Part shown: piece by piece, positions 9,177 through 53,802 of the stretch
How positions within the stretch are numbered: the first letter of the stretch is position 1
Layout: every line of letters starts with the position of its first letter
Virus record (IMG/VR): IMGVR_UViG_3300036832_001686
Location: 1 to 55,268 of that record
Length of the DNA stretch: 55,268 nt
Source: a virus
Taxonomy: Duplodnaviria > Caudoviricetes
Direction: 5' to 3' (one strand)
Notes under the pieces: generated by a model
Databases searched by the model: none
What the model saw: the letters and a program-made list of their open reading frames with translations, nothing else
What the model was told of the DNA's origin: nothing
Made by a program: the position numbers and the translations under genes

Positions 9177-11339
9177 ATGCCATTGCCAACGCCTCACGCC
9201 GGCGAAGAAGAATCCAAATTTATCGAGCGGTGCATGCACGCCATGGCCGAGACTGATCCGGACCGTCCCCAAGATCAGCGCTTGGCTATCTGCTATTCGC
9301 AATATAAAAAAGGCGATAAAGGACTAAATCCGGAAATGGTCCGCTATCGCGAGCTGGCGCTCCAGAAGAAATTTCTGGACCGGGAAAAGCGCTTGGTGCG
9401 TTTAAGCTTCAGTTCCGATCAACCGTATCTTCGCGAGAATGGCTATGAGATTCTGAGCCACGCGAAAGGAGCGCTGAACACCGATCGATTAAAATCGGGC
9501 TTGGCCTTGCTAGTCAATCATAACTGGGAAGACCAGCTTGGCGTGGTCACCGATTATAGCGTGGACGGGCACAAAGCTTTTGCCACGGTCAAGATCTCCC
9601 GTTCGGTCCGCGGCGAAGAACTCTTAAACGATATCGAGGACGGAATTAAACGCAGTGTCAGCGTCGGTTATTCGATCGATAAGATCCGGCAACTCAAAGA
9701 TGAGGAACTAGACAGCTACTTTGCCAAGGACAACGGCGAGATGCATCCCATGGAAAGCGAGATGGGCGGCGAAGATAGCGGCGAAGACGACGAGGACGAG
9801 GAGGACGAAGAGGACGAGGATGAAGCGGAGGAAGAGGACGATTATCGGGCATTAGCTAGAGCGCGTGGCGCCTATCTGGTGACCCGATTTACTCCATTGG
9901 AAATATCAGTGGTGAGCGTGCCGGCGGATATCAGTGTTGGCGTCGGCCGCTCCAAAGAAGTAGCCCCCGCGCCTGCGGTAAGTATAGAAAACCCCATCCG
10001 AGAATCTATGGCCGAGACTAATGTTGTCGAAATTACAAGCGAAACGCTGAACGAGGCGAGACGGTTAGAAGTCGCCCGCATTCGCGAATTAACCGGAATC
10101 GGCAAGCGTTTCGGCGCCGAGAAAGAAGCCGACGATTTCGTCAACCAAGATAAGACGGTAGCGGAATTCAACGCCTACATTCTCGAACATAAGATCAAAA
10201 CCCAGAACGTAATTCCGACGCCTCCGACCGGTGCAGTCCCAAATCGGGATATGGCCCGCTATGACCTCTGCAAAGCCATCATGGAAGGCGGCGAGCATCG
10301 CCTGAGTGGTCTGGAATTGGAAATTGATCAAGAGATGTCTCGGGTTAATCGCAAGAGCCGACCGGATAGTTTCTGGTTACCAGAGCAAGCTTTCGGGTAT
10401 GCGTTACGAAATACGCCATTGGGTCGGCTGGCGACCCGCGACGCCGTGGTCGGCACTCCTGGTCTTGGGGGAGATTTGGTGCAGACCACGGTGGTGCCCA
10501 GTCTGATCGAGCTATTACGACATAAGATGGTGCTCGGCAGAGCCGGGGCGACCATGATGTCAGGACTGCGCGATAACCTGGCGATTCCCGGCCAGATCAC
10601 GGCGGCAACCGCGACTTGGGCCACTGAAGTCCAGGCTTTGACCAACACCGATCGCACCTTCAACCAGGTGCCCTTAGAACCAATCCGTTTAGGCGCAGTG
10701 AGTAACTTTTCCAAGATGTTACTCGCCCAAAGTGTGCTCTCGATTCAAGCCATTATCGCCGAGGATCTTTTGACGGTGATTGCGTTGGCCGAGGATGAGG
10801 CCGGCCTTTTCGGGACCGCGCCGGCGCCAGTCGGGATTTTCAATTATCCGGCTAATACGCCGACCGGTAACGTCTATCAACAGACTGCGGCCAGCGTCAC
10901 TTTCCCGAGCGGTTATCCAACTTGGACAAATATCGTTGCTTTCGAGGGTAACGTCGGATTCTTAGACGTGAACCTGGATGACCCGAGCGCGCGTTACATC
11001 ATCAATCCAAAAACGATGGCGGCGTGGAAGACTTACGCCAGGACCGATCCGCGAGCGACGAACCAATTTTATCCCGCGTTCTTCATTGATCAGGACAACG
11101 AAGTCAATGGTTATCCTTACATCGCCAGCAACCAGATTGGACCCACAAACCAGGTGCTCTTTGGCGTATTTTCCAATGTCATTATTGGGCACTGGGGCGG
11201 TGGTGTGGAACTGTTTACAGATCCTTATACTCTGGCCCATCAGGCGGAGGTCAGGATCGTCATCAACCTCTTTACGGACATCGCGTTCAGGTATACGCAA
11301 GCCTTCGCTTATTCGACAAACAGCGGGATTACCAATTAA
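9177..11339 (+). CDS. Prohead protease - major capsid protein fusion (HK97 fold)
   Basis: Protease motifs LLVNHN, SVSVGY and EISVVSVPAD; capsid motifs GGDLVQT, LIELLR, NGYP and FGVFS...WGG...DPYT. Confidence 0.92.
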   Translation: MPLPTPHAGEEESKFIERCMHAMAETDPDRPQDQRLAICYSQYKKGDKGLNPEMVRYRELALQKKFLDREKRLVRLSFSSDQPYLRENGYEILSHAKGALNTDRLKSGLALLVNHNWEDQLGVVTDYSVDGHKAFATVKISRSVRGEELLNDIEDGIKRSVSVGYSIDKIRQLKDEELDSYFAKDNGEMHPMESEMGGEDSGEDDEDEEDEEDEDEAEEEDDYRALARARGAYLVTRFTPLEISVVSVPADISVGVGRSKEVAPAPAVSIENPIRESMAETNVVEITSETLNEARRLEVARIRELTGIGKRFGAEKEADDFVNQDKTVAEFNAYILEHKIKTQNVIPTPPTGAVPNRDMARYDLCKAIMEGGEHRLSGLELEIDQEMSRVNRKSRPDSFWLPEQAFGYALRNTPLGRLATRDAVVGTPGLGGDLVQTTVVPSLIELLRHKMVLGRAGATMMSGLRDNLAIPGQITAATATWATEVQALTNTDRTFNQVPLEPIRLGAVSNFSKMLLAQSVLSIQAIIAEDLLTVIALAEDEAGLFGTAPAPVGIFNYPANTPTGNVYQQTAASVTFPSGYPTWTNIVAFEGNVGFLDVNLDDPSARYIINPKTMAAWKTYARTDPRATNQFYPAFFIDQDNEVNGYPYIASNQIGPTNQVLFGVFSNVIIGHWGGGVELFTDPYTLAHQAEVRIVINLFTDIAFRYTQAFAYSTNSGITN
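9978..9984 (+). promoter_or_regulatory. GTAAGTA motif inside the protease-capsid gene
   Basis: 23 nt before in-frame ATG 10008 (Met278), at the protease/capsid boundary. Confidence 0.6.
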
Positions 11340-16762: not shown

Positions 16763-19129
16763 ATGACTAGAGACCTCCAAGAACTCAAACTCCTGATAAC
16801 CGGGCATACGGACGCCTCGGTCGGCGCGGCCAGCGCTAAAGTCGTCGGTGAAGTCAAAAAGCTGGCAGACAGTTTGGACCGGTTGGCGGGCATCGAAAAA
16901 CAGATTGGTCAGGTCAACATTACTGTTGCCGAGGGATTCAAGAAGATGGGGACCGGCGCCAGGCAAGCCAAAGAAGAATTGACCGGCTTTGAGGCTAGCT
17001 TGAAACGAGTCAAGGAAATTGCGGCCGGCGTTTTCAGCGGCGAAGCGCTCTGGGAAGGATTCAAGACCGGGATTGAAGCGGTCAAAGAAGGCATCGGTGA
17101 AGTCGTTACCCAACTGCAAGAAGCCTCGAAAGCGGCCAGTGATTTCGAGATGGTGCAGAAAGGGATCGGGAACCTGTTACGCGATCAAGCGTATGCCAAC
17201 GCCATGATTGGCCGATTCCAAGAAGTGGCCGTCGGATCTCCCTTCCAAGCGCAAACCCTTTTGGAGACCGCCCGCTCGCTCACCGGTCGCGGCATGCAAA
17301 AGGAAATGCTCGAATCTCGGACCGAAGAGCTCGGGGATATCGTGGCGGGGCTCGGCGGCGGTCCGGATTTAATGGGCCGATTGACGCTTGCCTACGGTGA
17401 GGCTTTCAGTCAGCACCTTGTCGATAAGCGGATCATCAACCAATTCAGCAAGGCTGGTGTCAACATCATGTCCGAGCTGATGAAAGCCTACGGGCTCGAT
17501 CCGAAGTCCGACGCTGACACACAGCGCATGTATAAGATGATCCACGATAAACAGATCACCTTTACCGATATCGACAAAGCGATCTACGAGCTCACGCACA
17601 ACATGGGGCTCTATGCGGACGGTATGAAGAAGCACGCCGACACTGCTCAAGGTGTCTGGACCGGGTTCCTCGATCGGATGCTCTATATCCAGCAGGATCT
17701 CGGCGCCATCGTTAACGATATTTCCATGACGCTCTTAAGCTTGCTGGAGAAAAGCGGATTTTTGAAAGCGTTCGATACCTGGCTAAAAGGTATAAAGAGC
17801 ATGGCGGACAGTATGACCGAGCATTTCAAGCTGTTCGATGGGGGGAAGATTATCTCGTTTTTTCAGACCGTCGGAGATGGCATCCAGCAATTCATGGTGA
17901 AGCTGGGTTTGATCTCGAAAAGCGCAGAATCGAAATATCTCACTAGCGACATTTACGCCTTTGCCGGTCAACGACCGGAGACCTTCGGCAAGCAACATCC
18001 GCAACTAGGCATGGTAACGCCGGCGTGGAAACTCGGAGGGGACTTCGAATCGGCGGGGATCTTACCAGCTGCCGCAAGTCCCGCAGACAAACTGACTACC
18101 TGGTTAGATCAGCTCTCCAATATTCTGGGCAGCATTCAGACGGAGCAGGTCACAAATTTTTTAGAATGTTTGCTGACGATATCTACCGAGATCAAAACCG
18201 ATTACATCGAACCGATCTTTAAATTCTTCAAAGCTGTTGGCGATTTCGGAGATTGGTGCGCCGGACCCGGCCACGATCAAGTCATTGGTTTCTTCAACAC
18301 CATCAAAGATTTCTGGGACAAAATTGTGGGGAAACCAACGCCGATCTCGGCAGCCCGCAGCACTGTGGATATCGACCGGGAGATGGTTAACCAACGGCAA
18401 AGGGAATTGAACGATAAAATTTCAATGGGCTTGCAGAACCAAATCGAGCCCGCCAAAGCCGCTTTAACTCTTGCCCAAGACAAACTCAAAGTTGATACCG
18501 CTTTGCTGACAGTGACAGACTCACTCACAAAAGCTTTCGAAGGTCATAGCCCGGGTCTGATCCCAGCAACCGAGACTGCGACCGCTGCGCTGGATGCATT
18601 TACCCAAACGCTGCTCTCGATGCCGCTGGGTGCCGCGGCGGGCGGCTTTGGTGGTGCGGCTGGCGGCGGTGCTGGCGTCACCGAGTACGGTCCGTCGATC
18701 GATCCGCCAGGGTCTCCTAATTACGATTACAACTCCTATCACCGCATTGGGGCGTGGCCCGGAGTGACTGGTCCGCTTCAGCCCGGCGATGTCGCGCTTG
18801 GCTACGGCGCCCAAGCTCATTACGGGGTGCAGCCAGGGCAATGGTTCACTGACGATCAAGGGCGCCACGTTCGGTTCGCCGATCGCAGCGGAAGCAAGAA
18901 TCCGATGAATGAGGACATCTTCCGGCTTGCGGCTGGCGGCATCGTGCGTCGACCGACGACTGCGCTGATCGGCGAATCCGGACCGGAAGCGGTGGTCCCG
19001 CTGCGTGGTGCCGGCGCCATCGGTCACACCATCAACGTGACGGTCAACGGCTATGGGGATGGCGAACAGATCGCGGAGATGGTCCGCCGCGTTTTGGAAG
19101 AGGAAACGGAACGAACCGGTTCAGTCTGA
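16763..19129 (+). CDS. Tape measure protein with C-terminal 3D(DPBB)-like domain
   Basis: SPFQ, LGDIVAG, INQFSKAGVNI and AAGGIVRRPTTALIGESGPEAVVPL; VTEYG...DVALG...FADRSGS...EDIF. Confidence 0.92.
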   Translation: MTRDLQELKLLITGHTDASVGAASAKVVGEVKKLADSLDRLAGIEKQIGQVNITVAEGFKKMGTGARQAKEELTGFEASLKRVKEIAAGVFSGEALWEGFKTGIEAVKEGIGEVVTQLQEASKAASDFEMVQKGIGNLLRDQAYANAMIGRFQEVAVGSPFQAQTLLETARSLTGRGMQKEMLESRTEELGDIVAGLGGGPDLMGRLTLAYGEAFSQHLVDKRIINQFSKAGVNIMSELMKAYGLDPKSDADTQRMYKMIHDKQITFTDIDKAIYELTHNMGLYADGMKKHADTAQGVWTGFLDRMLYIQQDLGAIVNDISMTLLSLLEKSGFLKAFDTWLKGIKSMADSMTEHFKLFDGGKIISFFQTVGDGIQQFMVKLGLISKSAESKYLTSDIYAFAGQRPETFGKQHPQLGMVTPAWKLGGDFESAGILPAAASPADKLTTWLDQLSNILGSIQTEQVTNFLECLLTISTEIKTDYIEPIFKFFKAVGDFGDWCAGPGHDQVIGFFNTIKDFWDKIVGKPTPISAARSTVDIDREMVNQRQRELNDKISMGLQNQIEPAKAALTLAQDKLKVDTALLTVTDSLTKAFEGHSPGLIPATETATAALDAFTQTLLSMPLGAAAGGFGGAAGGGAGVTEYGPSIDPPGSPNYDYNSYHRIGAWPGVTGPLQPGDVALGYGAQAHYGVQPGQWFTDDQGRHVRFADRSGSKNPMNEDIFRLAAGGIVRRPTTALIGESGPEAVVPLRGAGAIGHTINVTVNGYGDGEQIAEMVRRVLEEETERTGSV

Positions 19130-37239: not shown

Positions 37240-37542
37240 GGTGTACCTAAAGTGTACCTTGCATCCCATTCCGCCGTTTAGATTTTCATTCGTAAGTCGT
37301 TGGGGATCAAGGCTTGCACCGTGCCGGAGTCGAACCGGCAACCTAATGATTAAGAGTCTCAAAATTACCCTCTGCCTATCCGGGACGATATGTGCCTTTA
37401 AATGTCGCTAAATGCCGCTCAATTGGCTTAAATAGAGGGAAAGCCAAGCGAACAGATAGTGATTTATCGGTTGACATCGGCCCAAATCGGACCTAATAGG
37501 ACGACATAGGCGAGACGAAAGGTGCACTAGGTAGGTGCACTT
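37240..37542. other. Phage attP region
   Basis: tRNA-derived core flanked by paired arm-type repeats GTGTACCT x2 (37241-37259) and AGGTGCACT x2 (37520-37541) in opposite orientation. Confidence 0.75.
37315..37358 (-). tRNA. 3' half of tRNA-Lys(CTT), att core (not a full tRNA)
   Basis: Minus strand GACT-CTT-AATCATTAGGTTGCCGGTTCGACTCCGGCACGGTGCA: anticodon loop, T-arm and 3' acceptor strand only. Confidence 0.85.
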
Positions 37543-37574: not shown

Positions 37575-37787
37575 ATGACTGACAACGAGATTATTGCAAC
37601 TTTAAAGCCCTGTCCGTTCTGCGGCTGTTCAGAGATTCAATGGGTAACGCATTATTTCAATAAGTGTTGCGCTGATCCGAACGTGCCAACGGTAGAGATC
37701 ATTTCTTGTACTAATCCAGCTTGCGGTGCGCAGATACGCCGGATCGAGATTGAGCAGGCGGTGAAGGTCTGGAACTACAGGCAATGA
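37575..37787 (+). CDS. Lar-family restriction alleviation protein
   Basis: LKPCPFCG...C..PACGA...AVKVWNYR. Confidence 0.8.
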   Translation: MTDNEIIATLKPCPFCGCSEIQWVTHYFNKCCADPNVPTVEIISCTNPACGAQIRRIEIEQAVKVWNYRQ

Positions 37788-39100
37788 AACAGCATTCCAA
37801 AACCACGGCGGAATATTGGCTCAGTCGCGTCTACTTCCACAACCAGGGGGGCAAAGTCGAAGCCGACTATTCGGTTTTGATTCAACACGACAAGCGCCGG
37901 GAACGTTTCCCGTTGCATACGTCCAACAAGCGCCAAGCTTCCGAGCTCGCCCGCGAGATTTACCGAACCCTGCAAAATGGCGGTTGGGATCTGACCATCG
38001 CCGTTTACAAGAAAGGCCAGACTATCGATGGTGACCTCACGGTCGGTCAATACCTCGATGCCGTGGCCCGAGTCTGGACTAAGCACGAAGCAACTCTGCA
38101 CAATTACACGCGCAGTTTGCGCATGATCGTGACGGAGCTTTTTAATCTGGATCCGGACAACCAACGCTTTAACTACAAGCATGCCGGCTCGGCCGCTTGG
38201 CGGGCGCGGACCGATGCCGTTTACTTGAGCGACATCACCACCGACCGGGTCAACACTTGGGCGCTCGGCTATGCCGGCCGAAACATCAAAACTCGCGGGC
38301 CTGGCGCAGCACCCGAGACCAATCACGTCGCGCTTAACCGGCGTCGCATTTCGGCGAATTCCTATCTGCGGACCGCTAAAAGCCTTTTCTCGCCCAAATT
38401 ATTGAAGCGTACCGGATTCAAGCTCGCGTCGATCCCGTTTAAGGATGTCGAGTTTTTCGGCGGCACCGATAGCCGCTACTTTAGCGATTTCGATATCCGG
38501 AAAGTTTTGACTGCGGCCCAAGCCGAGCTCGCGCCTTTTGACGCTGACGCTTATTCGGTGATTCTTTTGTCTGCTGTTGCCGGGTTACGCCGGGGCGAAA
38601 TTGATTTGCTGGAATGGCCCAGCATTGATTTCAAGCATGGCGCCATCCAATTACGGGTGACCGAATACTACCGACCGAAAACGCCGGATTCGTTGCGCCA
38701 GGTTCCTTTCAAAGCGCCTTGGGTTCTGGATTGGTTTAAGGCCAGGCGGACCGCCCAAGGCGAGCAGGCGCGCTTTGTGGTGGCGCCAGCCGCGCAGTAT
38801 CAGCCCGACCAGAAAACCGATTACTACCGCTGCGCTGATCTCTTGAGCAAAGTTTCGGCTTGGTTACGTGCCCGAGGCGTCAAAGCAATCCGGCCGTTGC
38901 ATACGTTACGCAAAGAAGCGGGCGCCGATATCGTGCGCCGGATGGGCTTGGTTGCGGGTGCGGCGTTCTTGCGTCACAAGACAACCGCAGTGACCGCAGC
39001 TCACTACACCGATTGGACAATTACAGAAACGCCAAGTTTCGTCGATGTCGGTCAAGAAGAAAAAAATATTATTAAATTTGCAGAAACCGACTTGACATGA
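37784..39100 (+). CDS. int: Tyrosine integrase
   Basis: GLRRGEI, PKT, HTLRK and LRH...TAAHY catalytic residues. Confidence 0.93.
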   Translation: MKQHSKTTAEYWLSRVYFHNQGGKVEADYSVLIQHDKRRERFPLHTSNKRQASELAREIYRTLQNGGWDLTIAVYKKGQTIDGDLTVGQYLDAVARVWTKHEATLHNYTRSLRMIVTELFNLDPDNQRFNYKHAGSAAWRARTDAVYLSDITTDRVNTWALGYAGRNIKTRGPGAAPETNHVALNRRRISANSYLRTAKSLFSPKLLKRTGFKLASIPFKDVEFFGGTDSRYFSDFDIRKVLTAAQAELAPFDADAYSVILLSAVAGLRRGEIDLLEWPSIDFKHGAIQLRVTEYYRPKTPDSLRQVPFKAPWVLDWFKARRTAQGEQARFVVAPAAQYQPDQKTDYYRCADLLSKVSAWLRARGVKAIRPLHTLRKEAGADIVRRMGLVAGAAFLRHKTTAVTAAHYTDWTITETPSFVDVGQEEKNIIKFAETDLT

Positions 39101-43456: not shown

Positions 43457-44018
43457 ATGAAAATTCATCCGGTAGCAGACCTCTTTCCTATGATGTCGGA
43501 TGACGAACTCACCGAGCTCGCCACCGACATTAAAGCTAATGGGCAAATCCATCCCATTATTATCGATAACGATATTATTATTGATGGTCGGAACCGGCTC
43601 GAGGCTTGCAATCGGGCTGGAATACAACCGACTTTTGCCGAGCTGAACGGCCAAGATCCGGTCGCGTTTATTCTCTCAGCCAATATTGCAAGGCGCCATC
43701 TTTCCAAGGGCCAACAAGCCATGGCGGTAGCGAAAGCGTTATTACTAAGTAATAAAACGCAAACTCAGGCGGCAAAACAGACGCAAGTAAGTCAAACCCG
43801 GATCGCACAAGCTTCGATCGTTCTGCAATACGCACCCGATCTAGCCGATGGCGTACTATCGGGCGCGCTCGCGCTCAACGTCGCCTATGAACAGGCGCAA
43901 AAACGTAAAGATCAAAGCAGCTCAACCGATGAAGCGTTAAAACGGTTGCACAAAGAATCGCCGGAATTAGCCGATCTGGTTGTGGAGGAACGGATGAGCT
44001 TAGGCGAAGCCGAGGCGG
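43457..44018 (+). CDS. ParB-N domain protein, N-terminal part (continues at 128..375)
   Basis: IHPVADLFPMM...DIKANGQIHPII...DGRNRL...NIARRHLSKGQ. Confidence 0.88.
43892..44018. repeat. 127-bp exact repeat, copy 2
   Basis: Identical to 1-127. Confidence 0.97.
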
Positions 44019-44905: not shown

Positions 44906-45045
44906 AGCTCGCTACTGCCGACTAACAATTCTGTTAGCCGGCAGTGTGCGAACTAAATCGCCCATGCCTTGCCTTGCCGCGCCGTGCCTGGCCCTGCCTC
45001 GCCTTGCCTCGCCGCGCCTTGCCCTACCAAGCCGCGCCAAAATCC
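44906..45045 (-). ncRNA. Guide-like RNA unit A: (NN-GGY)x15 + AT-GGG + hairpin
   Basis: Perfect 5-nt register 44961-45040; 3' hairpin TCGCACACTGCCG-GCTAACAG-AA-TTGTTAGT-CGGCAGTAGCGA. Confidence 0.8.
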
Positions 45046-45062
45046 TAGAGTCTGCTTTCAGC

Positions 45063-45209
45063 AGCTCGCTACTACCGTTAGCAGTTGCCAACGGCAGTAT
45101 GCGAACCGTTATGGTTTCGCCCATGCCTTGCCCCGCCAGGCCTCGCCTCGCCCTGCCGTGCCAAGCCTCGCCGCGCCCTGCCAAACCCGGCCTCGCCAGG
45201 CCAAAATCC
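45063..45209 (-). ncRNA. Guide-like RNA unit B: (NN-GGY)x16 + AT-GGG + hairpin
   Basis: Perfect 5-nt register 45120-45204; 3' hairpin TCGCATACTGCCG-TTGGCA-AC-TGCTAA-CGGTAGTAGCGA. Confidence 0.8.
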
Positions 45210-45857: not shown

Positions 45858-46184
45858 TCACTTCCCGCCGGCGGCTGGCGGGTAAGCTTTTACTTTCGCC
45901 AGTTTATCTAAAATTCGATCCAGCGTAGCTTCCAGCTCTTCCAGGTCGGTCCCATCGAGAACGATAGACACCAGTTTATCGACGATGTTAGTTGTCTGGT
46001 TCTCTAATGCTTCCAGATCACTGGGGGTGTTTTCCTCAATGTATTTTAGGTTCCCGGTGATATTATTTGTCTGTTCGTTTAATGCTTCCAGATCACCAGG
46101 AGTATTTTCTTCGATGTACCGCAGGCCAACGGCGATATTACCTGTCTGTTTGTTTAGTTCGTCGAGATGCTGCCGCTCATTCAT
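45858..46184 (-). CDS. Coiled-coil protein with about three 25-aa repeats
   Basis: (D)LEALNEQTNNITGNLKYIEENTPS-type units. Confidence 0.7.
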   Translation of the reverse strand: MNERQHLDELNKQTGNIAVGLRYIEENTPGDLEALNEQTNNITGNLKYIEENTPSDLEALENQTTNIVDKLVSIVLDGTDLEELEATLDRILDKLAKVKAYPPAAGGK

Positions 46185-49498: not shown

Positions 49499-51946
49499 AT
49501 CACTCGCGATCTACAAGAGTTAAAGATCCTAATTTCGGGGCATACGGACGCCTCGGTCGGTGCCGCCAGCGCTAAAGTGGTCGGCGAAGTCAAAAAGCTG
49601 GCAGACAGTCTAGACCGGTTGGCGGTAATCGAAAAACAGATTGGCCAGGTCAACAACGCGGTCGCGGAGGGATTCAAGAAAATGGGGAGTGGCGCTCGCC
49701 AAGCCGAAGCTGAACTGACCGGCTTTGAGGCTAGCCTGAAACGAGTTAAAGAAATTGCAGCCGGCGTCTTTAGCGGCGAAGCGCTCTGGGAAGGATTTAA
49801 GGGCGGCGTCGAGATGGTCAAGGAAGGTATCGGGGATGTCGTGGAACTGCTGCAGAACGCATCGAAAGCAGCCTCTGACTTTGAGATGACGCAGAAGGGA
49901 ATTGGTAATCTGCTGCGCGATCAGCCCTATGCCAACATGCTGATCAAGAACTTGCGGGAAACCGCTGTCGGCAGTCCTTTTGCGCCCGAGACGCTGTACG
50001 GCGCCGCTCGAGCGCTGACAGGGCGCGGCATGGACAAGAGTCTGCTCGAGTCGCGCACGAATGAGCTGGGCGACATCGTGAGCGGTATTGGCGGTGGGCA
50101 AGAGATGATGGAACGGCTGACGCTCGCATACGGCGAGGCGTTCAGCGAGCACCTCGTCAACAAGCGAATTCTCAACCAGTTCGCCCAGGCTGGCGTCAAC
50201 ATCACGTCCGAGATCATGAAGGCTTATGGCATGGACCCCACGGATGCCAACGTGCAGAAATTCCAAAAGATGGTGCATGATAAACAGATCACCTTCACCG
50301 ATGTCGATAAAGCACTCTACACTTTGACGCACGGCATGGGGATTTATGCGGACGCGATGCAGAAACACGCGGAGACAGCGCAAGGTATCTGGACGGGATT
50401 CATCGCGAGGCTGAACTTCATCGAAGTCGATCTCGGCGGCATCGTTAACGACATCTCGATGACGTTGCTGAACCTGCTCGAAAAGAGCGGCTTTCTGAAA
50501 GCATTCGACACCTGGCTGCAAGGGATCCGCACCATAGCGGACAGCATGACCGAGTATTTCAAGCTGTTTAACGGCGAAAAGATTATCCATTTTTTCCAGA
50601 CCGTCGGAGACGGCATCCAGCAGTTCATGGTGAAGCTGGGTTTAATCTCCAAAAGTACAGAATCAAAATATCTCACTAGCGATATCTACGCCTTTGCCGG
50701 TCAGCGTCCCGAGACCTTTGGTAAACAACGGCCGCAACTGGGCCGGGTAACGCCAGCCTGGAAACTGGGCGGAGAATTCGAATCCGAGACAATCCTGCCG
50801 GCCGCACCGACACCGACGGTGGCGGATAAATTGACCAAATGGTTAGACGATCTCTCTAACACTCTGGCCAGCATTCATACGGAGCAGGTCGAAGATTTCC
50901 TGCAAGGTTTGGTGACGGTATCGACCGCAATCGGCGGAGTCAGTATGGATTTCTTTGGTGAAATTGCTGATTTCTTCAAGGACATGTACACCTTCGGGCA
51001 ATGGTGCGGCGGACCCGGCCACGATATGGTGGTTGGGTTTTTCAACGCCATCAAAGATTTCTGGAACAACATTGTTCAATGGATCTCGGATCACATCCCG
51101 CCCTTTCTGAAATTGACGGCGCCCTCGGATCAAGAGAAACGAATGAACGAAGCGGCGGATAAAGCCCGCAGCACCGTCGATATCGACCAGGAGACAGTCA
51201 ACCAGCGGCAAAGCGACCTGGACAATAAGATGTTGTTGGGCACCCAAGACCAAATTGATCACGCTAAATCCGCTTTAACCCTGGCCCAGGACAAGTTGAA
51301 AGTTGATACCGCGCTCGCCGCGGCGGCAGAGTCACTCACCAAAGCGTTCGAAGGTCATAGCCCCGGGCTGATCCCGGCAACCGAGACTGCGACCGCGGCG
51401 CTAGATGCATTTGCCCAGGCCATGCTCTCTATGCCCCTTGGAGCAGCCACGGGGGGCTTTGGTGGTGCGGTCGCTGGCGGTGGTGCTGGCGTCACTGAAT
51501 ACGGGCCGAGCATCGATCCGCCCGGGTCTGCTGACTACGATTATAACTCGTATCACCGTATCGGTGCGTGGCCTGGAAAGACAGGGCCCTTGAGTCCTGG
51601 TGATGTCGCGCTTGGCTACGGCGCGCAAGCTCATTACGGGGTGCAGCCCGGGCAATGGTTCACTGACGATCAAGGGCGCCACGTTCGCTTCGCCGATCGC
51701 AGCGGGAGCAAGAATCCGATGAACGAGGACATTTTTCGCCTCGCTGCTGGCGGCATTGTGCGACGTCCGACGACTGCGCTAATTGGCGAGTCTGGGCCCG
51801 AAGCGGTGGTGCCCTTACGCGGTGCCGGCGGTATCGGTCACACTTTCAATGTGACGGTTAACACTGTCGCCGGTGACGGCTACGCAATCGCAGAGATGGT
51901 GATGAATGCACTGCAGGAGCTCACGGAGCGAACCGGCTCCGTGTAA
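49499..51946 (+). CDS. Tape measure protein paralog of 16763..19129 (start uncertain)
   Basis: Colinear end to end. Homology begins at ATC 49499 (ITRDLQELK versus MTRDLQELK), upstream of the GTG called at 49577. Confidence 0.9.
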   Translation: MTRDLQELKILISGHTDASVGAASAKVVGEVKKLADSLDRLAVIEKQIGQVNNAVAEGFKKMGSGARQAEAELTGFEASLKRVKEIAAGVFSGEALWEGFKGGVEMVKEGIGDVVELLQNASKAASDFEMTQKGIGNLLRDQPYANMLIKNLRETAVGSPFAPETLYGAARALTGRGMDKSLLESRTNELGDIVSGIGGGQEMMERLTLAYGEAFSEHLVNKRILNQFAQAGVNITSEIMKAYGMDPTDANVQKFQKMVHDKQITFTDVDKALYTLTHGMGIYADAMQKHAETAQGIWTGFIARLNFIEVDLGGIVNDISMTLLNLLEKSGFLKAFDTWLQGIRTIADSMTEYFKLFNGEKIIHFFQTVGDGIQQFMVKLGLISKSTESKYLTSDIYAFAGQRPETFGKQRPQLGRVTPAWKLGGEFESETILPAAPTPTVADKLTKWLDDLSNTLASIHTEQVEDFLQGLVTVSTAIGGVSMDFFGEIADFFKDMYTFGQWCGGPGHDMVVGFFNAIKDFWNNIVQWISDHIPPFLKLTAPSDQEKRMNEAADKARSTVDIDQETVNQRQSDLDNKMLLGTQDQIDHAKSALTLAQDKLKVDTALAAAAESLTKAFEGHSPGLIPATETATAALDAFAQAMLSMPLGAATGGFGGAVAGGGAGVTEYGPSIDPPGSADYDYNSYHRIGAWPGKTGPLSPGDVALGYGAQAHYGVQPGQWFTDDQGRHVRFADRSGSKNPMNEDIFRLAAGGIVRRPTTALIGESGPEAVVPLRGAGGIGHTFNVTVNTVAGDGYAIAEMVMNALQELTERTGSV

Positions 51947-52162: not shown

Positions 52163-53320
52163 TTAATTGCTCACGCCCGAATTTGTCGAGATCGCCCAGG
52201 CTTGCGTGTGCCGGAACTTAACATCTACCCAGCTGTCCAAAATAAAGCGAACGCGCCCGCTGGTACTTTGGCTATACGGATCCACAAAAACTTCAGTGCC
52301 GCCCCAGTGGGCAAAAATCGCATTCGAGAAATCTCCAAAGAGCACTTGGTTAGTGGCTCCGATCTGGTTAGTTCCGATAAAATCCCAGCCAGCGATACCT
52401 GCGTCATTCGCGTAAAAGTTTGGATAATAGGTGGTCGCGCCTCGTGCATCCTGACGTGCGTATCCCTTCCACGCGGCTAATGTGCTCGGCGAACAAACGA
52501 ACCGGGTGGTTGCAGGGTCTAGATCCACATCGCACGCGCCGGCGACATTCGCCTCGAATTGCAAGACTGCGGCCCACGTCGGCGGCCCGCCTGTTGCGAA
52601 CGTCACCGAGGGGGCTAGCTCGCCATAAACGCTCGTCCCGGGCGCGGAACTCGGGATGGTAAACAATCCCACAGGCTGGTTGTTAGCCGGCCCAGTGCCC
52701 CATAACCCTGCGTAATCTTCAGCCACTGCGATGCTCCTCAACAAATCGTTGGCGACGAACTGTTGGGCGCTCAAAGCGCTTTGAGTTAACAATTGTCGAC
52801 TGACCACCGCAACCGAGTTCAATCTCTTGGGGGACAAAACAATTTGTGCGAAAGTTCGGTCCGAACTGGTCGCGGGGCTGATCTCGGGAAGCCACGCCGA
52901 AGTGGAGGCCGAGGTCTGACCTGCAATCGCCAAATCACCCTGAAGATTGTCGAGAAAAACGGCCCCGGCTCGACCAAAGACCATCTTTTTTCTGAGCAGG
53001 TCGATCAGTCGCGGCGACACATCCGTCTGGATAAGCGAACCACCGGCGCCAGGCGTACCTGCCACGGCGTCGCGCATCACCGCTCGCCCGATCGGTGTGT
53101 CTCTTAACGAAAAGCAGAGACACGAATCGGGGAGCCAAATTGCGTTCGGATTTTTTTTCTGGCGCCCTTCAGATAGAGCAACGTCAACCGCTTTTTCCAG
53201 GCCGCTCAATCGCTGATCGCCCGCCTCGCGCAGAGCTTTGCACAAATCGTAACGCTGCAGTTCCTTTGCGGGGATCGACGGGAACGGAGCCAGAGTCAGG
53301 GGCTTGGTTTGATAGTCCAT
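52163..53320 (-). CDS. Major capsid protein paralog lacking the protease and most of the scaffold region
   Basis: RYDLCKA, RLSGLE, RDAVAGTPG, LLRKKMVFGRAGA, NQIGATNQVLFG and the C-terminal STNSG are shared with the helper capsid. Confidence 0.9.
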   Translation of the reverse strand: MDYQTKPLTLAPFPSIPAKELQRYDLCKALREAGDQRLSGLEKAVDVALSEGRQKKNPNAIWLPDSCLCFSLRDTPIGRAVMRDAVAGTPGAGGSLIQTDVSPRLIDLLRKKMVFGRAGAVFLDNLQGDLAIAGQTSASTSAWLPEISPATSSDRTFAQIVLSPKRLNSVAVVSRQLLTQSALSAQQFVANDLLRSIAVAEDYAGLWGTGPANNQPVGLFTIPSSAPGTSVYGELAPSVTFATGGPPTWAAVLQFEANVAGACDVDLDPATTRFVCSPSTLAAWKGYARQDARGATTYYPNFYANDAGIAGWDFIGTNQIGATNQVLFGDFSNAIFAHWGGTEVFVDPYSQSTSGRVRFILDSWVDVKFRHTQAWAISTNSGVSN

Positions 53321-53802
53321 TTTTGGTGACTTTGTTAGGTCGATTTGACCGCCTAAACCGTACACCCTGGACCACGGGCTTGACAGCACAAAAGATGTCG
53401 CTTGTCCAGAGCTGCGCCGTCTCTGATACTAACGCCATGTTTTCCTGGCGCAGAGCTTTTGCGGCCCTCTTGCCGCCGCATAAAAAAACTGGCGAGCAGG
53501 TGACGCGACCGCCGTTGATGTTGTCACCGCTCTTCTCCTCGCCGTACAGGAGCGAACCAGTTGGTTGGTTTACCCATGTTGCAGGCCTCGATGTCACCGG
53601 CAGCAACACCAACTCCGGACTGTTCAACCGTCGCCCTCGTTCGTGGGAGACTCAGCAACAAGTCCCGAATTGGGTAGGAGCGGGACAGCACTCACCGCCA
53701 GCGCCGCTTTTGCTGGACGCGAATCAAGCCCCAGGATTCTATCGGCCTCGCATTTCGGTTTTCACAACGCCGGCTAAGCTCGGCCGTCTCTGGAAATGGT
53801 AA

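Follow-up and report, generated by a model that had tools for sequence, protein, structure and literature searches.

The two tandem units at positions 44906–45209 of virus record IMGVR_UViG_3300036832_001686 very probably encode the guide RNAs of a VIPR (Viral Interference Programmable Repeat) system, in which two head-to-tail vrRNA genes lie immediately upstream of vipr and the hairpins that close them are the 3′ tails of the RNAs. The window analysed here is the whole IMG/VR virus record, 55 268 bp in length. Because an adjacent gene on the same strand encodes a Vipr protein and the repeats have the GGY-NN architecture, the units were taken as vrRNAs and the hairpins as their constant 3′ tails. 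A preliminary description of the region had proposed structured minus-strand RNAs with a constant 3′ handle resembling a crRNA stem, and the adjacent gene and repeat architecture bear this out.

VIPR is described as a phage-borne system, related to CRISPR, that silences DNA under the guidance of an RNA (bioRxiv 10.64898/2026.04.26.720920). According to that preprint, the phage-borne Vipr, an early-branching RAMP, binds vrRNAs of 9–16 YNNGG repeats with a conserved GGY and a hypervariable NN. After the last repeat comes a 3′ tail that does not vary and whose secondary structure is conserved; in the SUSP1 clade it folds as a pseudoknot. The authors liken this tail to the crRNA repeat handle. The NN dinucleotides read dsDNA, with one base skipped per unit, and transcription is repressed; the natural targets given are satellites and rival prophages. 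Seven types are distinguished by array layout and accessory vap genes, type II being the one given for Escherichia phage SUSP1 and for a prophage of Pseudomonas fulva (10.64898/2026.04.26.720920). The companion structural preprint describes a helical filament with one protomer per repeat, in which H17, D177, R138 and W178 hold the two guanines while R179 and its neighbours hold the pyrimidine (10.64898/2026.04.26.720927; PDB 36pp, 36PK). Solo (orphan) vrRNAs are reported from F5 satellites and VIPR-null phages, where a shared consensus tail is taken as competence for Vipr complex formation (10.64898/2026.10.15.759431), and VIPR arrays have been recovered with a language model (10.64898/2026.10.21.760802).

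For assignment to VIPR we looked for at least four (typically 9–16) tandem YNNGG/GGYNN units, vrRNA genes flanking vipr on the same strand, a minimal RAMP with an RRM core, a thumb and a C-terminal glycine-rich loop, and a structured, invariable 3′ tail. The window holds a Vipr protein, GGY-NN tandem units, vrRNA genes on the vipr strand, and a structured 3′ tail.

Locus layout and the Vipr protein

The two units lie on the minus strand between a 69-aa ORF (45473–45264) and a 204-aa ORF (44866–44252), both also on the minus strand. They start at 45209 and 45045, 164 nt apart, and each reads, on the minus strand, GGAUUUU, 16–17 GGY-NN pentamers, a short linker and a 47–49-nt hairpin. In vrRNA-A the 5′ flank GGAUUUU (45203–45209), the same seven bases that stand ahead of vrRNA-B, is followed by 17 pentamers (45118–45202; 15 GGC, one GGU and a terminal GGG) whose NN positions are the presumed guide. 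A linker, AAACCAUAA (45109–45117), leads from the tract to the tail hairpin (45062–45108), which has 21 pairs (four G·U), one bulged A, the apical stem UUGGC/GCUAA and the loop AACU. In the spacer between the units (45046–45061) a small hairpin, CUGCU GAA AGCAG, is possible; it overlaps the last bases of the vrRNA-A tail stem. vrRNA-B has its own GGAUUUU (45039–45045), 16 pentamers (44959–45038; 14 GGC, one GGU and a terminal GGG), the linker AUUU (44955–44958) and a tail hairpin (44906–44954) of 21 pairs (two G·U) with a 2 × 1 internal loop, the apical stem GCUAACA/UGUUAGU and the loop GAAU. Between the end of the array and the vipr start lie 39 nt, and both tracts are on the vipr (minus) strand. 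Rfam at gathering thresholds identified no family in the window or in five related loci, and a nucleotide BLAST of the locus against isolate phages returned no match.

The 204-aa product of the vipr gene (P0001; 44252–44866, minus strand) is RAMP/Cas7-like, as judged by homology and a structural model. The vipr gene is followed in the minus-strand direction by a 126-aa ORF (P0002; 43875–44255, minus strand), a candidate accessory (vap) gene, whose start overlaps the vipr stop by 4 nt and whose last third lies inside a 127-bp repeat. P0002 had no match in Pfam, PHROG or NCBIfam and no BLAST similarity to the genes that follow vipr in phages tootiki and LESphi2; its best Atlas score, 0.81, is a lead only. 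Upstream of the array, the ORF at 45858–46184 (minus strand) contains an internal 110-nt direct repeat (45984–46093 versus 46059–46168, 75% identity), so this small upstream protein is itself repetitive.

Searched against the PDB with phmmer, P0001 matched 36pp_D, 'SUSP1 Vipr protein', over residues 7–203 (E = 1.3e-32). A profile built from 20 relatives matched 36pp over the full length (E = 2.6e-56), and 36pp was the one PDB entry matched by both the profile and P0001 alone. The SUSP1 residues H17, R138, D177, W178 and R179 align to H21, R150, D190, W191 and R192 of P0001; all five of the published GGY-contacting residues that were checked are thus kept, and four of the equivalents (W191 is the exception) vary little or not at all among the 20 relatives. 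The C-terminal glycine-rich loop, GLCDWRPRYGRF, is also present. An AF2 model of P0001 (pLDDT 93.8) gave 54 Foldseek matches in the PDB at E ≤ 0.001 (best E = 1.5e-5), headed by type III-A Csm-complex chains, two of these rows being named Csm3, and by type VII chains; the modelled fold is Cas7/Csm3-like. P0001 had no Pfam or NCBIfam match and matched phrog_4652, a family of unknown function (E = 1.9e-50). By homology, P0001 is the Vipr protein of the locus.

A search with P0001 alone found no close relatives in viral, genome and metagenome contigs. The nearest Vipr relatives, among the best 80 of 305 stretches, are at most 46% identical; those in genome loci are spread over many phyla at no more than 42% identity. 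At least 130 isolate-phage records encode relatives of about 36–41% identity, and all those listed, including Felixounaviruses, Mycobacterium phage LittleE and Pseudomonas phage LESphi2, are 'hypothetical protein' or unannotated. In both LESphi2 (OQ594955.1; locus L283) and Escherichia phage tootiki (MN850647.1; L284), the Vipr homologue and the gene after it are annotated as hypothetical only. The vrRNA tracts of tootiki are labelled merely 'repeat_region', and the LESphi2 Vipr locus lies beside CI and Cro genes.

Other systems built on repeats were considered. CRISPR-Cas was rejected, as the period is 5 nt inside 164-nt units and not that of 25–40-nt repeats with spacers, and as Rfam gave no match. 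Among ten neighbouring ORFs scanned, the only RAMP was Vipr and there was neither a Cas6 nor any further cas-like gene; integrase and ParB-like matches were found. A type III toxin–antitoxin (ToxIN-like) system came into question because the repeats precede a gene of about 200 aa, and was rejected because that gene is Vipr and not of the ToxN/AbiQ type. A TRAP-like ring-protein site, a G-quadruplex array and a retron/DRT template were dropped on the Vipr match. There are resemblances to the Class 1 CRISPR crRNA, with its Cas7 backbone and its 3′ stem-loop handle derived from the repeat: in both, a RAMP protein polymerises on a guide RNA with bases flipped out at regular intervals, and a constant, structured 3′ element caps the variable guide. 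The Vipr fold resembles Csm3. The period in Class 1 systems, however, is 6 nt with five guide bases, whereas in VIPR it is 5 nt with two guide bases per protomer, and the published VIPR target, unlike that of Class 1 CRISPR, is dsDNA with a skipped base.

Pentamer tracts and their orientation

The tract period, as determined by TRF, is 5 nt. The pentamer pattern had 18 matches in the window, against 0.05 expected, and all 18 fell within the two tracts; a looser scan of both strands of the window for GG at 5-nt spacing revealed no third tract. Between tracts A and B the GGY positions are identical at 45 of 45, while the NN positions agree at 11 of 28. Conserved GGY with variable NN, together with an invariable structured tail, is the published vrRNA hallmark; the pentamers would thus serve as the guide, with the adjacent gene encoding its RAMP partner. 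With 17 units, vrRNA-A is one above the published range of 9–16. Each tract is closed by AUGGG, as are the vrRNAs of the SUSP1-family phage tootiki and of several distant loci.

The periodicity also bears on whether the stretch might be protein-coding, as a 99-aa minus-strand ORF (45211–44912) or a 96-aa plus-strand ORF. Open frames of 84–99 aa do span the array on both strands, as would be expected of GGCNN repeats, which rarely make stop codons. The period, however, is 5 nt and not 3, and conservation tracks GGY and NN rather than codons, which leaves a coding role with next to no likelihood.

To place the tracts among other loci, IMG/VR DNA was scanned with the pattern (GCCNN)x7+GCC, that is, eight GCC triplets at 5-nt spacing, which occurred in at least 120 contigs. 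The examples looked at first had their coding sequence on the GGC strand, with a gene similar to P0001 next to the tract. Among the matches listed, tblastn found P0001 relatives in 40 of 120 loci, and the Vipr profile, built from 20 relatives, matched in 85 of 120 contigs; again among the matches listed, the tract lay on the vipr strand in 83 of these 85. Within the best 80 of 305 tblastn-confirmed Vipr stretches, 53 had same-strand tracts and none an opposite-strand tract. A tract was present in 20 of 29 genome loci, on the vipr strand in all 20, one of which also carried a tract on the opposite strand. Six of the loci (L013, L023, L048, L068, L087 and L104) have tracts on both sides of vipr with equal unit counts (12/12, 14/14); there only 10–30 nt separate the end of the tract from a ribosome-binding site and start codon, and a structured tail is not obvious.

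The locus shares with the SUSP1 and P. fulva systems a Vipr that is homologous from end to end (the Felixounavirus copies are about 36% identical), same-strand vrRNAs beside vipr, GGY-NN units with variable NN, a structured constant 3′ tail and a phage carrier. It differs in several respects. SUSP1 has one vrRNA upstream and three downstream of vipr, whereas both lie upstream in the window; SUSP1 vrRNA1 has 12 units against 16–17 here; and the SUSP1 and P. fulva repeats are GGU-rich, those of the window GGC-rich. The SUSP1 tail is a pseudoknot of about 40 nt, and that of the window a bulged hairpin of 21 pairs and 47–49 nt. Solo vrRNAs likewise combine a GGYNN tract with a conserved tail; the window vrRNAs differ in lying beside their own vipr gene.

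Structure and variation of the 3′ tails

On the minus strand both tail copies read UUCGCA(C/U)ACUGCCG ... CGG(C/U)AGUAGCGAGCU, so that the flanks which the preliminary description had noticed at the ends of both units are indeed common to them. Hairpin A folds with −34.5 kcal/mol (z = −7.39) and hairpin B with −33.4 kcal/mol (z = −7.35), and for each none of 200 shuffles folded as well. Read from the plus strand, hairpin A reached −19.5 kcal/mol (z = −2.1; 8 of 200 shuffles as good) and hairpin B −27.5 kcal/mol (z = −6.2). The strand asymmetry arising from the G·U pairs is real. Hairpin B folds fairly well from the plus strand too.

This plus-strand fold of hairpin B, together with the position of the array in an early/lysogeny region near an integrase and a ParB-like gene, would suit repeats that act as DNA, whether as protein-binding iterons, recombination sites or an origin, with the hairpin as a palindromic binding site. 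Against this, G·U pairs make the fold strand-specific, and hairpin A is poor on the plus strand, as its z-score there shows. Tract and vipr share a strand in 83 of 85 contigs among the matches listed and in 53 of 53 within the best 80 of 305 stretches, and the homologous SUSP1 elements are described as RNAs that co-purify with Vipr (10.64898/2026.04.26.720920). We regard a DNA element as very improbable, and the units are treated below as RNA.

Comparison of the two copies showed two different kinds of change. The alignable lower stem has 14 pairs, of which 12 are invariant and two have one-sided changes (A-U/G·U and G-C/G·U); no compensatory double change was found in these 14 pairs between the two copies. 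Both one-sided changes go to G·U, where the other strand would have A·C mismatches. The flanks and lower 14 pairs are common to both copies almost letter for letter, whereas the apical stems are wholly replaced, with 7 bp (GCUAACA/UGUUAGU) in B and 5 bp (UUGGC/GCUAA) in A. Each apical stem prolongs its helix without a break, and shuffled apical segments matched the observed contiguous helix in only 239 of 100 000 cases for B and 850 of 100 000 for A. Pairing by inner stems of different sequence, as described before, was thus recovered, with corrected dimensions: the stems are of 7 and 5 bp with 4-nt loops, since the 8- and 6-bp stems first drawn would leave loops of 2 nt. As there are only two copies and the apex cannot be aligned base by base, the term 'covarying', which had been applied to the hairpins as a whole, is right for the apical part only; it does not fit the lower 14 pairs with their two one-sided changes. 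Covariation in the window is replacement of the apex, not paired point changes. Inspection by eye for a pseudoknot between loops and flanks revealed no partner common to both copies.

The tail sequence itself was not recovered elsewhere. Its DNA pattern had no match in IMG/VR viral DNA and 19 in a metagenome collection, none of the 19 beside a pentamer tract, and these were taken as chance for want of a neighbouring tract. A covariance model from the window's two tails, run on 231 VIPR-type loci, returned only its own copies, the best foreign E-values being 0.011, 0.086, 0.51 and 0.93. A covariance model from homologous loci had been proposed as the check on the hairpins; covariation did appear among the tails of the nearest relatives.

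These relatives from IMG/VR (L285, L287, L288 and L292; 42–46% identity in Vipr) have arrays in which a tract is followed by an A/C-rich linker, AACAnCAC, a short hairpin, GAAGAUUU(C/U) and the next tract, with GAAGAUUU(C/U) immediately ahead of the first GGC. The design is like that of the window, with tract, A/C-rich linker, a hairpin whose stem covaries, GAUUU(Y) and the next tract in the same order; the GGAUUUU lead-in of the window is similar to GAAGAUUU, and the copy A linker AAACCAUAA to the A/C-rich linker of the relatives. Their hairpins, flanked by AACAnCAC and GAAGAUUU, are nevertheless short (6–9 pairs), that of the window being more than twice as long, and their tails have no detectable sequence homology to the window tail. 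Covariation was assessed on 16 distinct tails of the AACAnCAC-hairpin-GAAGAUUU kind from these four loci, with seven predicted pairs. Double-sided changes occurred in six of the seven, and 94.5% of cells paired, against 73.4% in shuffles. The covariation score was 0.633 against 0.241 for shuffled tails, with none of 500 shuffles reaching the observed value and clearly lower scores in slid registers. Variation of the stem within one array, with pairing kept, is found in these four loci also.

Across other VIPR loci the tails are very diverse: some are hairpins of terminator type, some are minihelices resembling a T-loop, and in some loci the next gene follows with almost no intervening structure. 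Fixed flanks around a paired 3′ tail are common but not universal, and the window version of such a tail is unusually long. In L021 (with an identical sequence in L254, from Piscicoccus intestinalis), L102 and L117 each tract is followed by a minihelix with GGTTCGA(C)TCC, resembling a tRNA T-arm. These minihelices matched no tRNA or other Rfam family at gathering thresholds, and may be tRNA-like processing signals between guides.

The diversity of tails across VIPR loci argues against one universal handle read by a protein, and raises the question of whether the window hairpins are mainly signals for processing or termination, either RNase III-type sites or attenuators that balance guide RNA against vipr mRNA, rather than a handle read by Vipr. 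Classical double-strand RNase substrates are close to 21 pairs long, near the length of these stems, and a hairpin follows every unit, the last one 39 nt before the vipr start. Termination is not favoured by the terminator scan, which found none at either hairpin, with no U-run after either. The near-identical lower 14 pairs and flanks, with an apex that drifts, fit sequence-specific recognition better than a bare cut site. In SUSP1, moreover, the 3′ pseudoknot is reported to stay on the mature RNA and is visible in the complex, where it caps the RNA in the cryo-EM filament (10.64898/2026.04.26.720927). As the main role of the hairpins, processing or termination appears improbable, though the processing and handle roles are mutually compatible.

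A handle role thus remains the preferred reading, with the tail most likely acting, by analogy with SUSP1, as a cap that delimits the filament and protects its 3′ end. Since the window tail is a plain bulged hairpin and not a SUSP1-type pseudoknot, this capping role is transferred by analogy only. Near-identity of the lower stem and internal loop, against a free apex, suggests that the lower part of the tail is the recognised portion. That the hairpin would also mark cut sites between the units of the array transcript is plausible but speculative. We think it rather unlikely, but worth stating, that the tail represents a separate class of vrRNA 3′ handle (with, as a further possibility, a VIPR locus that belongs to a second, co-assembled element). 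Vipr or a host enzyme may then read no more than the conserved lower stem with its internal loop, leaving the apex free to drift, and a tail of 21 pairs could attract a double-strand RNase of the host that would separate the units, a Cas6-free route of maturation different from the SUSP1 pseudoknot.

Targets, genomic context and proposed mechanism

Targets were sought under the published criterion of at least 80% NN match by the 1-nt skip rule. Within the record, the best self-matches covered 20 of 30 and 18 of 28 guide positions, against shuffled-guide averages of 19.1 and 18.2, and so gave no self-target. A scan of IMG/VR from one exact 8-unit seed per guide gave 22 and 91 seed loci, with best full-guide matches of 21/30 and 23/28. 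By our estimate, a 23/28 match is expected by chance roughly once per 91 seeds, and the guide is A-rich. For neither guide did any target in IMG/VR extend beyond chance from the exact 8-unit seeds. The portal protein of the record is at most 32% identical to that of any isolate phage. One sequencing run is listed for this DNA, a soil metagenome that may be its source, and no RNA run.

Just left of the VIPR locus, the 127 bp at 43892–44018 are identical to positions 1–127 of the window, forming a junction in the record. A ParB-like ORF continues more naturally from 43891 into bases 1–375. To the right of the junction lie a second integrase and paralogues of left-side genes for the tape measure (75% aa identity) and a head protein (48%), the paralogous regions being 16763–19129 versus 49577–51946 and 9177–11339 versus 52163–53389 (minus strand). 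The record may therefore combine two pieces, a circular genome of about 43.9 kb and, joined to it, 11 kb from another, related element, with the VIPR locus on the second piece. As 127 is a common assembler word length, the join could have been made by an assembler. The VIPR locus may on this account belong to a second, co-assembled element with its own integrase and with paralogues of the phage tape-measure and head genes; if true, a rival or satellite-like element would be armed with a complete VIPR system. On the left side, 6.5 kb from the junction, a tRNA-Lys (CUU) gene (37315–37386, minus strand) adjoins the first integrase-like gene (37784–39100, plus strand); this could be an attachment site, or else a tRNA that the phage carries.

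Expression, filament formation and DNA targeting at the locus are proposed by analogy with the work on SUSP1 and P. fulva. The array would be transcribed with or ahead of vipr, and one Vipr protomer would bind each GGY-NN pentamer, so that 16–17 protomers would coat each RNA. The protomers would form a helical filament in which the GGY bases are hidden and the NN dinucleotides displayed, the latter reading dsDNA by the published '1-nt skip' code. The complex would block transcription of a rival mobile element, and the tail would cap and delimit the filament at its 3′ end and shield that end.

VIPR, which is related to CRISPR and has only recently been described, reads DNA by a gapped RNA code. 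The picture drawn in the 2026 preprints is unchanged by this locus, which is another example of the published kind; what it contributes is a member from a soil phage in which a long hairpin, and not the pseudoknot characterised so far, closes the guide RNAs. This locus and the relatives examined indicate that what is conserved in the 3′ tail is a paired shape between fixed flanks and not the sequence. Such tail anatomy is useful for annotating the boundaries of vrRNAs and for asking what the tail does.
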